DNA from: a virus | Taxonomy: Duplodnaviria; Heunggongvirae; Uroviricota; Caudoviricetes | Direction: 5' to 3' (one strand) | Virus record (IMG/VR): IMGVR_UViG_2695420708_000013 | Coordinates: 1 to 17,722 of that record | DNA length: 17,722 nucleotides | Shown: in pieces, positions 191-7,080 of the stretch | How the letters are laid out: every line of letters begins with the position of its first letter | Numbering within the stretch: position 1 is the stretch's first letter | Notes under the pieces: model-generated | The model's input: the letters and a program-made list of their open reading frames with translations, nothing else | The model's database searches: none | Told to the model about the DNA's origin: nothing | Made by a program: the position numbers and the translations under genes

Positions 191-1300
191 TCACTCTGTT
201 TCTGCTATCCATTCCGGGATTTTTGCCTCAAGCTCAAGCTGCGTGGTAAAGCCGCTGTTATCAATGGTGTGCTCGGCTTTTGCAATAATCCAGTCCTGAT
301 TATCAATCTCGCTTTTAAATCCTGTTACCGTGCCATGCATTTCGGGGTAGAGTTCTGCACGTCCATGCGCCAGTGTGATGGAGAATGATGCGGCTCCGCG
401 TTGTAGCTGCTGCCACTTTGCCGCCGCTGCACGTCTTGCTGCCTGCTCGTTCTGATAAGTTTTGCGTAACACAAACACGTTGCCTTCCGCACCTTCCATA
501 TAGTCGCCTTCCCGGCTGCTGCTTTTCTCCTTTTTTGGTTTTGACGGTTTGCGGCGTTTCACGCTGACTTTTTTCTTTTTCCCGTAATTAAGATCAAGCC
601 AGTAAGCGCGTACCCCCGTATACGCTTCGCGGTCAGCAATGCGGAACTGATGGCGATCGCCGCTGCTGCGTGTGATGGCGAACGAGGGCAACGGCTGGCC
701 CTGTGCGTTCACGCCACCACCGGGCATGATGAATAACAGATTACCGCTTTTTACCGTGGTGATTGCGCCCAGCATTTCCGCCATGCGCGTAAGGAAGGAC
801 ATGTCGCTTTCTTCGGTCTGGTCGGCGTGGTCGATTTCGATATCCATCAGCATTTCGCTGATTTGCGGTTTCAGACCATACCGATGAGCGATGGCGGATA
901 CCACACGCTCAACGGTCACATCATGCTAGGACACCTCACGTTTAACGTTAAATTCAGCCCGAAAATCTGCGCTTCTGGCTGAAACAGTCAGCCTGTCCGG
1001 CGGTCCTTCGTGAGCGATTTCATCAACAATGTAAGTGCCTTTTTCTGTCAGCGGTTCTCCCTTCCAGCCAATGAGAACCGTCAGGCGCGCGCCCCGTGGC
1101 GGTAGCTGCAACTGACCATCCGCATCATCCAGCGTGATGGTGAGCTGGTCCGCCTCAAATCCCCGGTTGTCGGTCAGTGACAGGCTCATCAGGCGCTCTG
1201 CCACGCCTGACAGCGTTTTACCCTCCGCGAGAATATCAAAATCCGGCATTTTCACGGGGTCTGTGCCCTGACTGAGCAATTGCATGGTGGTGTCGGTCAT
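191..1300 (-). pseudogene. D: P2 gpD-like tail protein, interrupted by an in-frame TAG at 926-928
   Basis: ORFs 926..1432 and 191..919 are in the same frame, separated only by TAG (reading ...EFNVKREVS * HDVTVERVV...). Likely true start is ATG 1298-1300 (MTDTTMQLLS) preceded by GGGAGGGAG; the ORF-track start at 1432 is an upstream extension. Confidence 0.6.
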
Positions 1301-1457
1301 CTGCTCCCTCCCTGTGTGGCATGGTCGCATGTGCGTGCGGAGGGGGTTACTGCTTTTTGTTGTCGCCGTGGCGGGAGAATGGCGCAGGGGTGAGATTACG
1401 CGCGTGGTGGGTGATGATTGTTGCCGAATCATTTAACGGATACAAGGGGTTGAAGCT

Positions 1458-2642
1458 ATGAGTGAAACTCGTTTTCATGGTGCCCGTGTTACGGAAAATA
1501 CCGACCTGGTAACAGCGATTAACGATGTTGATTCCAGCGTTATCGGTATCGTGGCAACGGCGGATGATGCGGACGCGGAGCTGTTCCCGCTGAACAAGCC
1601 CACACTGCTGCCCCGCGTCAATGACGTGCTGGGAAAATGCGGAACAACGGGGACGCTTTATCGTGCGCTTAAGGCCATCGCAGACCAGGTGAGCACAAAG
1701 GTGATCGTCGTTCGCGTGGCTGAACACAAAGAAGAAGACGGAAAAACGCAGGATCAACTGGTTATCGGTGGTTCTGAATCTGACGGCAGCTATACGGGGA
1801 TGTATGCGCTGCTTGTTGCAGAGCAGGATGAAAGCATCGGATACCGTCCGCGTATTCTGGCCGCGCCGGAGCTGGACACGGAGGCGGTGACAAAATCCCT
1901 GTGCGTGATTGCGGGTAAACTGCGCGCGTTTGTGTATGCCTCATGTCATGACTGTAACACGATGGCTGAGGCAATTACCTACCGCCAGAAATTCAACGAA
2001 CGTGAGGTGATGCTCTTATGGCCGGACTTCATCGCCTACAACCCGAAAAGTGGCAAAAACGAAACGTTCCCCGCGCCTGCCTATGCGTGCGGCCTTCGTG
2101 CGTACATTGACCATGAGCAGGGCTGGCACAAATCGCTGTCCAACGTTCCGGTTAAAAATGTGCTGGGGATGTCCAGGCATGTGTTCTGGTCGTTGCAGGC
2201 CGAAGACAGTGATGCCAACAGCCTCAACAACAAAGAAATCACGACCATTATTCGTCGCAACGGGTTCCGCTTCTGGGGCAACCGCACACCGGAAACGAAC
2301 GCCTACATCTTTGAGGTGTATACCCGAACCGCACAGGTGCTGGCTGATTCAATTGCGGAAGCGCAGTTTGAAACCATCGACAGTCCACTGACGCCTGCGA
2401 ACGTGAAGGATGTTATCGGTGCCATCAGGGCAAAACTGGATTCACTGGTTACTGCCGGGAAACTGATTGGGGCGTCGTGCTGGTATGACGTGGTGGATAA
2501 CGGCACCACGAATTTACGTCAGGGGCGCGTGCGTATTCGCTACAAATATACGCCTGTTCCCCCGCTGGAAGACATGGAGCTTTACCAGTCGTTTACTGAT
2601 GAATTCTTTGGTCCCGCATTTGCGGTGCTGGGAGGTGCCTGA
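1458..2642 (+). CDS. FI: Contractile tail sheath protein (P2 gpFI-like)
   Basis: 394-aa ORF; recognisable sheath motifs (FPLNKP, RAF.Y, WPDF, GWHKSLSNV, IRRNGFRFWGNRT, YTPVPPLE); AAGGGG SD before the ATG; stop overlaps FII start (ATGA). Confidence 0.93.
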   Translation: MSETRFHGARVTENTDLVTAINDVDSSVIGIVATADDADAELFPLNKPTLLPRVNDVLGKCGTTGTLYRALKAIADQVSTKVIVVRVAEHKEEDGKTQDQLVIGGSESDGSYTGMYALLVAEQDESIGYRPRILAAPELDTEAVTKSLCVIAGKLRAFVYASCHDCNTMAEAITYRQKFNEREVMLLWPDFIAYNPKSGKNETFPAPAYACGLRAYIDHEQGWHKSLSNVPVKNVLGMSRHVFWSLQAEDSDANSLNNKEITTIIRRNGFRFWGNRTPETNAYIFEVYTRTAQVLADSIAEAQFETIDSPLTPANVKDVIGAIRAKLDSLVTAGKLIGASCWYDVVDNGTTNLRQGRVRIRYKYTPVPPLEDMELYQSFTDEFFGPAFAVLGGA

Positions 2643-3154
2643 TGGCTGTACCAAAACATCTTCGCTTTTTTACGCTGTTTGTGGATGGTGAAAACGAAGT
2701 GGGTAAGGTGACGTCCGTCACTCTGCCTAAGCTGACGCGCAAAACCGACAGCTACCGGGGTGGTGGCATGATGGGAGCGGTAAGTATTGATCTCGGCCTG
2801 GATGACTCCGCGCTTGATGCGAGCTTTGTCATGGGGGGCGCAGTTCGTGAGCTGTTCCTTAAGTATGGCGGCACGATTGACGGTACGCTGCTGCGTTTTG
2901 CGGGTGAATACTACACCGACGCTGAAAGCGACCTGTATGAAGTCGAAATGCGCGGACGTGTGACGGAAATTGATATGGGGGAAGCCAAACAGGGCGAAGC
3001 CACATCACACACTTACGCCATTAAAAACACCTACTACAAGCTGAGTGTTAACGATCGCCCGTTGTGGGAGATTGACCTGCTGAACTTCATTTACCGGAAG
3101 GACGGCAGGGACATTGTGCCCGATCGCATCCGTTCCGCGCTCGGGCTTGGCTGA
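2642..3154 (+). CDS. FII: Tail tube protein (P2 gpFII-like)
   Basis: 170-aa ORF immediately after FI, translationally coupled; TLPKLTRK...YRGGGM motif typical of P2-type tube proteins. Confidence 0.9.
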   Translation: MAVPKHLRFFTLFVDGENEVGKVTSVTLPKLTRKTDSYRGGGMMGAVSIDLGLDDSALDASFVMGGAVRELFLKYGGTIDGTLLRFAGEYYTDAESDLYEVEMRGRVTEIDMGEAKQGEATSHTYAIKNTYYKLSVNDRPLWEIDLLNFIYRKDGRDIVPDRIRSALGLG

Positions 3155-3208
3155 TAAGTAATATGCAGGCGGCGCAGTGCGTCGCCTCTGACTGAAAGGA
3201 GTTTCCTG

Positions 3209-6532: not shown

Positions 6533-6544
6533 GGAGTCATGGCC

Positions 6545-7033
6545 ATGATGATGATCTACGGCATGTTTGTTTTTGAGCTGCGTACATTGCCGCATCAGCA
6601 GTTACAGCAAAACAAAAGCTGGCGGCATGTGAAAAATGAACGCGTTAACCGTTCGGCAAGCTGGCAGTATATCGGTGCAGGTGATGAGCGCATCGTTCTT
6701 TCTGGTGTGCTTTATCCTGAAATTACAGGTGGCGAAGTGTCGCTGTCGCTGCTGACCACGCAGGCGTATACAGGACGACCCTGGCCTCTGATTGATGGCG
6801 TCGGGCAGATTTACGGCATGTATGTCCTGACCGAAACGAATACGACCCGCTCCGAGTTTGATCGCTACGGTAAGGCGAAAAAGATAGAATTTTCACTGAC
6901 TCTTGAACGCTGTGATGAGGATTTGCGGGAGCGCCTGCAATCCTCATCGTTCAGCGATATGCTGTCCGGCTTCAAAGATAAGGTAACATCATCCCTTAAC
7001 AGCGCGGCCAGTTCAGTTAAAGGGTTGTTCTGA
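6545..7033 (+). CDS. U: Tail protein gpU-like
   Basis: ORF starting MMMIYGMFVFELRTLP resembles P2 gpU N-terminus; GAGGAG SD at 6531-6536 gives better spacing to ATG 6545 than to ATG 6539. Confidence 0.85.
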   Translation: MMMIYGMFVFELRTLPHQQLQQNKSWRHVKNERVNRSASWQYIGAGDERIVLSGVLYPEITGGEVSLSLLTTQAYTGRPWPLIDGVGQIYGMYVLTETNTTRSEFDRYGKAKKIEFSLTLERCDEDLRERLQSSSFSDMLSGFKDKVTSSLNSAASSVKGLF

Positions 7034-7046
7034 TTTAACACAAAAA

Positions 7047-7080
7047 CCGCTAATGGTCAGATTAGCGGTTATTTTGTTTC
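7047..7080. terminator. Bidirectional intrinsic terminator between convergent gpU and invertase genes
   Basis: Perfect 8-bp stem CCGCTAAT / ATTAGCGG with 6-nt loop, followed by TTATTTTGTTT on + strand and preceded by A5 (T-tract on the - strand); overlaps the invertase stop codon. Confidence 0.6.

Follow-up and report, generated by a model that had tools for sequence, protein, structure and literature searches.

In bacteriophage P2 (genus Peduovirus), the canonical gene order of the tail region is V W J I H G - FI FII E E' T U D ogr. The genes from FI to U are co-directional with all the others, and U overlaps D, the two being transcribed together from the promoter pF. P2-like phages are mosaic. 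The late promoters of P2 are recognized by an activator with the consensus site TGT-N12-ACA (PMC3931495). Among the relatives of P2, phage P88 and the Citrobacter phage phiSM, both of the genus Xuanwuvirus, are viable temperate phages (PMC5285337, PMC6456863). In this study, we analyzed a stretch of 17,722 nucleotides (positions 1 to 17,722 of the IMG/VR virus record IMGVR_UViG_2695420708_000013), which is designated as the window and represents the tail module of a P2-family prophage of the P88-like (Xuanwuvirus) type. The subject of the analysis is the orientation of its block of tail genes from FI to U (the FI–U block), which an earlier note made from the sequence alone had described as inverted relative to the neighboring genes and to P2.

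We confirmed that the FI–U block is truly opposite to its orientation in P2 and found that this orientation is ordinary for the lineage and not a new event. It is very probably the inherited and fixed order of a large Peduoviridae clade, which goes back to a single ancient inversion and in which D is most likely transcribed from a new promoter, designated as pD, that shares the Ogr-type activator site of pF. We describe below the evidence for this order, its distribution, the control region between D and FI, and the alternative explanations.

Orientation of the FI–U block relative to P2

Genes were called from an open reading frame (ORF) map and from PHROG and Pfam scans of the window. The Peduoviridae tail-module set, consisting of FI, FII, E/E', T, U, D, V, W, J, I, H, G, R, and S, is present, and a tblastn search with the tail genes of the window against P2 matched every gene at 26–82% identity. 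Beyond the gene set, the window shares with P2 the E/E' frameshift signal, the P2 record being annotated with a frameshift equivalent to the TTTTTTG of the window, and a pF activator site about 82 bp upstream of FI.

Comparison with the P2 record, together with tblastn, revealed that only the orientation of FI–U is changed in the window. In the canonical order, which is that of Peduovirus, Felsduovirus, and others, FI to U and D are co-directional with V-W-J-I-H-G, and U is adjacent to D; the window departs from this order. The genes from R to H and G are on the minus strand, opposite FI to U, as is evident from the ORF map and the PHROG assignments, and D, also on the minus strand, diverges from FI across 157 bp, as is borne out by the ORF map and the family scans. 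D thus keeps the orientation of the baseplate genes, and so does ogr in the relatives of the window, where it still follows D. At the other end of the block, U and an invertase gene share a bidirectional terminator: the hairpin has a perfect 10-bp stem, scores as terminator-like on both strands, and folds far better than shuffled sequences (z = −4.07 and −4.46). The strands of the genes, the 157-bp divergence of D from FI, and the shared terminator had been described in the earlier note, with coordinates that are correct to within a few bases, and its reading of the layout as the exact product of one FI–U inversion relative to P2 agrees with our results. The inversion itself is plain from this comparison.

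Distribution of the inverted order

The arrangement is seen in many annotated public genomes, among them those of characterized phages. By megablast, seven Xuanwuvirus records (P88, 520873, 503458, P884B11, phiSM, PhiR44_2, and 500465-2) matched the window on one strand at 93–95% identity; with the direct alignment to P88 included, the identity within the window is 93–96% over 78–82% of its length. A single alignment to P88 at 96.5% identity spans positions 183–7751, with both block boundaries inside, and positions 13104–17480 are collinear with P88 at 94.8% identity. The proteins of the window are 93–99% identical to those of P88 (FI, 97%; D, 96%; T, 96.5%), and the annotations of P88 and phiSM give the same gene order as the window. 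With P88 and the other Xuanwuvirus phages, including phiSM, the window has in common the order and orientation of the genes from D to R, the 157-bp D/FI gap, the terminator junction between U and the invertase gene, and the invertase.

Two points concern the annotation of these records. The phiSM record labels D as ogr and the sheath gene as 'late control gene D'. P88 gp53 was tested as a candidate for Ogr and rejected on the basis of a Pfam scan; an unannotated ogr homolog is located directly after D instead.

The same arrangement, with D on the minus strand, FI to U on the plus strand, and H to R on the minus strand, occurs together with a central TGT-N12-ACA site in the phages SEN4 and SEN5 (Salmonella, Senquatrovirus), KSP20 (Serratia), Kp4848-1 (Klebsiella, Reipivirus), and Kp4878-3 (Klebsiella, Reginaelenavirus). 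SEN5, KSP20, Kp4848-1, and Kp4878-3 differ from the window in that their sheath proteins are 55–70% identical to that of the window, they have no invertase match, and they carry other tail fibers. When the sheath protein was used as a tblastn query, a gap in identity appeared between 55% and 49%, and these four phages were among the records above it. In the SEN5 record, a 'late control protein ogr' fragment is annotated on the plus strand (10439–10558), whereas tblastn places an Ogr homolog on the minus strand (10506–10670), right after D; the annotation of the record is probably in error.

To survey the arrangement across genomes, we scanned with an FI profile, using one genome per species, and typed the orientation by tblastn, which gave 86 classifiable loci. 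Every locus with an FI at least 55% identical to that of the window had the inverted order (46 of 46, including 40 of the 40 genome loci among them), and every locus with an FI at most 51% identical had the P2 order (40 of 40). The inverted order spans four named Peduoviridae genera and about 20 host genera, including Salmonella, Citrobacter, Enterobacter, Kosakonia, Klebsiella, Raoultella, Serratia, Brenneria, Pectobacterium, Erwinia, Pantoea, Mixta, Providencia, Morganella, and Xenorhabdus. The orientation of FI–U relative to D is therefore a simple marker that perfectly discriminates a multi-genus P2-like clade.

The arrangement is also widespread within a single host species. At least 80% of the window was found in one collinear place in 159 complete E. 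coli genomes by megablast. For a junction test, positions 1001–1600 of the window were used as the real D/FI junction, and a canonical U-to-D junction was constructed from the window sequence. The real junction was contiguous in 1355 of the 5426 complete E. coli genomes, or about a quarter, and the constructed junction was contiguous in none of the 5426; the latter query matched 1412 genomes, always over about half its length. The earlier note had implied an unusual, local event, a reading to be abandoned if close relatives all had the same arrangement. The arrangement is in fact collinear in the close relatives, namely P88, phiSM, and five other Xuanwuvirus phages, and extends to other genera, which makes it an old lineage trait.

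Some of the loci encountered deserve separate mention. A contig labeled as a Firmicute ('Vagococcus sp. WN89Y', NZ_JBQPOM010000071.1; locus L009) contains a P88-like prophage that matches the window at 97% identity in the sheath and about 94.7% in nucleotides, and the label is probably due to contamination or a mislabeled assembly. In Trabulsiella odontotermitis (L017, 15806–21179), a degenerate inverted-type prophage has D in two frames, and I and the N-terminal part of H are on the plus strand between two copies of the invertase gene, as if a larger segment had flipped. Mannheimia phage 587AP1 (L091) has the tape-measure gene upstream of V and not between E and U, which is another rearrangement of the Peduoviridae tail module. 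In the xenorhabdicin tailocin xnp1, a variable region is located between the sheath gene and the fiber N-terminus (PMC13280938); this layout suggests the canonical order, though Xenorhabdus loci occur in the inverted clade.

Control region between D and FI

The D/FI gap is 157 bp in the P88-like loci L001, L002, L008, and L009 and about 120–195 bp across the 46 inverted-type loci, as estimated from tblastn-based D starts. No sigma-70 consensus promoter was found in the 157-bp gap, and a site for a P2-type late activator of the Ogr/Delta family is predicted near its middle (Table 1). Late promoters of this type depend on the zinc-finger activator of the phage, have the TGT-N12-ACA dyad centered about 55 nt ahead of the transcription start, and lack a −35 consensus; the sequence of the gap fits this pattern. 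In 42 of 45 inverted-type sequences, a site with no more than one mismatch is centered 74–88 bp upstream of the FI start codon ATG. The center of the pF site is 82 bp upstream of FI in P2, and the distance is about 80–83 bp in P2 and other canonical loci. Given that the site is at the pF distance in both arrangements, pF traveled with the block.

We aligned the loci on the site center, using 25 non-redundant inverted loci (<85% identity) and 20 non-redundant canonical loci. On the FI side, the motif nAnnAT at +44 to +49 had a mean information of 0.86 bit in the inverted loci and 0.77 bit in the canonical loci. On the D side, the motif TGn-aAncAT at +41 to +49 had 0.94 bit in the inverted loci, while the same position in the canonical loci, which served as a control, had 0.14 bit and is not conserved. 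The activator site and the conservation on both of its sides indicate that D probably has its own late promoter. In related inverted loci, ogr homologs follow D on the same strand. The earlier note had anticipated that D, once severed from the F operon, would need a promoter of its own, and the predicted pD is a good candidate for it.

We lean toward the view that the ancestral inversion made a second bidirectional late promoter, in which the dyad Ogr site of pF would have been co-opted for a pD that drives D and ogr, replacing both the U–D coupling and the read-through from the F operon. This shared pD/pF bidirectional late promoter is the one modestly new idea to come out of the analysis.

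An alternating CG tract, (CG)4-5, is located just upstream of the predicted pD −10 element and is strongly conserved across the inverted clade (equivalent position in L004–L046). The tract of the window, at 1330–1339, is degenerate (TGTGCGTGCG). A similar CG tract precedes the predicted −10 element of the P promoter in P88 (L088, 14183–14190).

Origin of the arrangement and alternative explanations

In neighbor-joining (NJ) trees, the bipartition of inverted and canonical loci was recovered with bootstrap values of 100 for FI, 100 for D, 95 for FII, and 98 for U. Several features suggest that the inverted order is the derived one. The maximum D distance is 1.56 among the canonical loci versus 0.53 among the inverted loci, and the canonical loci include those of β-proteobacterial, Acinetobacter, and Pseudomonas hosts. 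In the outgroups, Mannheimia 587AP1 and Vibrio MAR, FI to U and D are co-directional. In the canonical loci, the distance from the U stop to the D start is negative or close to zero (median, −4 nt), so that the inversion separated two translationally coupled genes. From the trees and the outgroups, we infer that the inversion had a single origin and proceeded from the canonical to the inverted order.

A number of points weigh against a single ancient inversion followed by the use of a shared pD/pF site. The 80 genome loci of the survey were the best hits to the FI profile, and the canonical phages were sampled from the nearest groups only. The trees were constructed by NJ from translations of high-scoring segment pairs (HSPs) and are unrooted, and midpoint rooting gave a decisive result in the case of D and U, in contrast to FI. 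The trees of J, W, V, and I (loci L001–L087) do not follow the split, the minimum between-group distance being as low as 0.32–0.35; the inverted clade is therefore defined by the FI–U–D module and not by whole genomes, and the baseplate/fiber module appears to have moved from one architecture to the other by exchange. As for the promoter, the activator site of the window has one mismatch to TGT-N12-ACA, with AGA in place of ACA, and the putative extended −10 element of pD (TGn) could act without an activator. No ogr is present within the window, which ends 190 bp past D, and positions 1–190, downstream of D, have no match in P88, in which D is followed by ogr and hok.

The behavior of J, W, V, and I, along with the mosaicism of P2-like phages, would favor a modular replacement, in which an FI–U cassette of a different phage lineage entered in the reverse orientation. 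However, divergence from P2 is alike inside and outside the block: the amino acid identities to P2 are 45% for FI, 44% for FII, 47% for U, and 31–32% for E and T, as compared with 48% for D and 45 and 42% for the flanking baseplate genes V and W. In addition, D, which is outside the block, co-segregates with it, supporting at 100% bootstrap the bipartition that was also obtained for FI, FII, and U, and this argues against a cassette swap. Because the block and its neighbor D share their history, one inversion is more parsimonious than a module swap. We therefore rejected the swap as the leading explanation and regard it as unlikely.

Another explanation is a programmed, reversible inversion of FI–U by the adjacent Gin/Pin-type invertase acting at quasi crossover sites. 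The gene for this invertase is directly next to U at the end of the block, an invertase gene is found at the same U junction in several subclades, and Gin/Pin-type invertases can use degenerate sites, as is the case with the quasi-sites of Cin. However, 26-bp crossover sites of the Gin/Cin type (TTCCTGTAAACCGAGGTTTTAGATAA) are present at 7707–7736 and 8906–8935 (direct repeats) and at 11826–11855 (inverted) and nowhere else in the window. Outside this tail-fiber region, the best crossover-like sequence matched 16 of 26 positions, and none was found at the block ends. Many members of the inverted clade lack the invertase, including SEN5, L008, E. coli RM9322, and E. coli cq9, whereas canonical relatives that have it carry the gene at the equivalent place, between the fiber cassette and FI. 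Furthermore, the flipped junction was absent from the complete E. coli genomes in the junction test described above. The invertase serves the tail-fiber switch and not the FI–U inversion; we rejected it as the cause, and a reversible FI–U switch is very improbable.

A recent inversion in this genome or strain would account for the contrast with the P2 order and for the non-coding DNA that bounds the block on both sides, and it might have occurred via short inverted repeats at 1301–1457 and 7034–7068. The earlier note had pointed to these breakpoints as places to look for such repeats or for quasi crossover sites. A comparison of 1280–1475 with 7015–7095 gave a longest inverted match of 7 nt, against a mean of 6.3 nt for shuffled sequences (p = 0.33), and no direct repeats above chance were found at either block end. 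The two junctions are common to P88, at 96.5% identity, and to hundreds of E. coli genomes, and the same order is retained down to 55% sheath identity. It is hence extremely unlikely that the inversion is recent. An assembly artefact, i.e., a mis-joined or mis-oriented contig, would fit with nothing beyond the order being unusual relative to P2, but it is to all intents excluded because independently sequenced complete phage genomes and closed chromosomes share both junctions and the identical order, and the local signals (the distance of the pF site, the Shine–Dalgarno sequence of D, and the bidirectional terminator) fit the orientation.

Features of this prophage copy

The features of the window are collected in Table 1. 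Although the window is close to P88, it differs in having an amber codon in D, a mosaic and split H, an extra methyltransferase cassette flanked by a direct duplication, and a different flank past D, with neither ogr nor hok within the window. The amber codon is an in-frame TAG at 926–928 (codon 125 on the minus strand), where P88 and E. coli RM9322 have TGG (W125), and corresponds to a single G-to-A change. Given that gpD is essential in P2, this copy is probably tail-defective, unless the codon is a sequencing error or the host has a suppressor.

H is split into overlapping ORFs at 12314–13708 and 11067–12353 on the minus strand, which are in different frames and contain two copies of a conserved fiber repeat. 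The fiber cassette, at approximately 7466–12350, is about 96.7% identical to a cassette of E. coli NCTC86 that is located near trpA/ompW, beside the lambdoid tail genes gpJ and lom, and this match includes an S-adenosylmethionine (SAM) methyltransferase gene and the distal part of H with the same split. The match suggests that H is a chimera of P2-type and lambdoid fibers. The direct duplication is 286 bp in length (7466–7751 and 8665–8950), carries the second crossover site, and holds the 5' end of the invertase gene, with the partial copy at 8673–8873. It brackets the gene for the class I SAM-dependent methyltransferase (7806–8474), an insert not present in P88, which has its own predicted sigma-70-like promoter, TTGATT-17-TATAAT, at 7777–7805. 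The three crossover sites define nested invertible tail-fiber segments holding alternative fiber C-termini (8981–9823) and chaperones (9789–10352 and 10381–10914).

Positions 1–190 match a spacer of E. coli O111 RM9322; in that genome, the spacer is followed by a PIN-domain gene, which is an insertion ahead of ogr, and hok comes after ogr. The amber codon in D, the split H, the mosaic cassette, the duplication, and the altered flank together suggest a decaying prophage; the head, lysis, and replication genes lie beyond the window.

Table 1. Positions of genes and predicted control elements in the window
Feature	Position	Strand	Remarks
D (baseplate hub / late control D)	191–1300	−	369 codons; phrog_52; Pfam PF05954 (Phage_GPD) on C-terminal ORF
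D/FI divergent control region	1301–1457	none	157 bp exactly
Predicted pD extended −10, TG-C-GACCAT	1321–1329	−	mirror-symmetric to pF −10
Predicted P2-type late activator (Ogr/Delta family) site	1361–1378 (center 1369/1370)	none	TGT-N12-AGA
Predicted pF −10, GATGAT	1413–1418	+	44–49 nt from site center
FI, tail sheath	1458–2642	+	phrog_23
FII, tail tube	2642–3154	+	phrog_55
E, tail chaperone	3209–3574	+	phrog_103
E+E' chaperone	3209–3738	+	−1 slippery TTTTTTG at 3521–3527; overlapping −1 frame ORF to 3738
T, tape measure	3689–6532	+	phrog_28; likely start ATG 3716, as in P88
U, tail protein	6539–7033	+	Pfam PF06995 Phage_P2_GpU
Bidirectional intrinsic terminator between U and invertase gene	7045–7070	both	hairpin
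Gin/Pin/Cin-family serine DNA invertase	7069–7674	−	Resolvase and HTH_7 domains; phrog_125
G, H (two ORFs), I, J, W, V, S, R: baseplate, tail-fiber, and tail-completion genes	10381–17154	− (as D)	PHROG assignments

Discussion

We propose that one ancient inversion of the segment comprising the pF promoter, FI, FII, E/E', T, and U took place in the ancestor of the clade. This event would have broken the translationally coupled U–D junction and placed D next to FI in divergent orientation. D, with ogr behind it in intact relatives, would most likely have come to be transcribed from the new late promoter pD, which would also replace the read-through into ogr that pF gives in P2. The F operon would end at the bidirectional terminator, where it would converge with the transcription unit that contains V to G and the invertase gene.

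As a finding of a genome scan, the arrangement carries little weight: it is how P88-like and related phages are ordinarily built, and these phages have already been sequenced, annotated, and partly characterized. Full-text searches of publications on P88, phiSM, SEN4/5, and PP4/KSP20 and of the 2026 survey of P2-like viruses, with subscription journals outside the search, revealed no description of the inversion. If the proposal is correct, the arrangement would be a clean synapomorphy of a multi-genus Peduoviridae clade, and the shared pD/pF site would explain the late control of D and ogr after their separation from the F operon. The pD/pF pair would also be an example of an operon that outlasts disruption by an inversion thanks to the symmetry of its activator site.

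Two known systems are instructive for comparison. The invertase and crossover sites of the window flank alternative fiber C-termini and chaperones, as in the G segment of Mu, the C segment of P1, and Pin of e14. These systems differ from what an explanation of the FI–U orientation would call for, in that the switch of the window covers only 7707–11855 and has no detectable site at the ends of FI–U. The closer parallel is with the divergent promoters pP and pO of P2. The P2 record shows one activator site (3057–3087) for the two, with start sites 55–56 nt to either side, and pD and pF would likewise use the single dyad-symmetric site of pF as pP and pO use theirs. In P2, the site is located midway between two divergent late operons, and in the D/FI region the one predicted site has −10-like elements 44–49 nt to each side, a geometry and a two-sided conservation that fit the pP/pO design. 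The genes that the pair would serve are D and FI, in place of P and O, and pD and pF are predicted, whereas the starts of pP and pO have been mapped by experiment.

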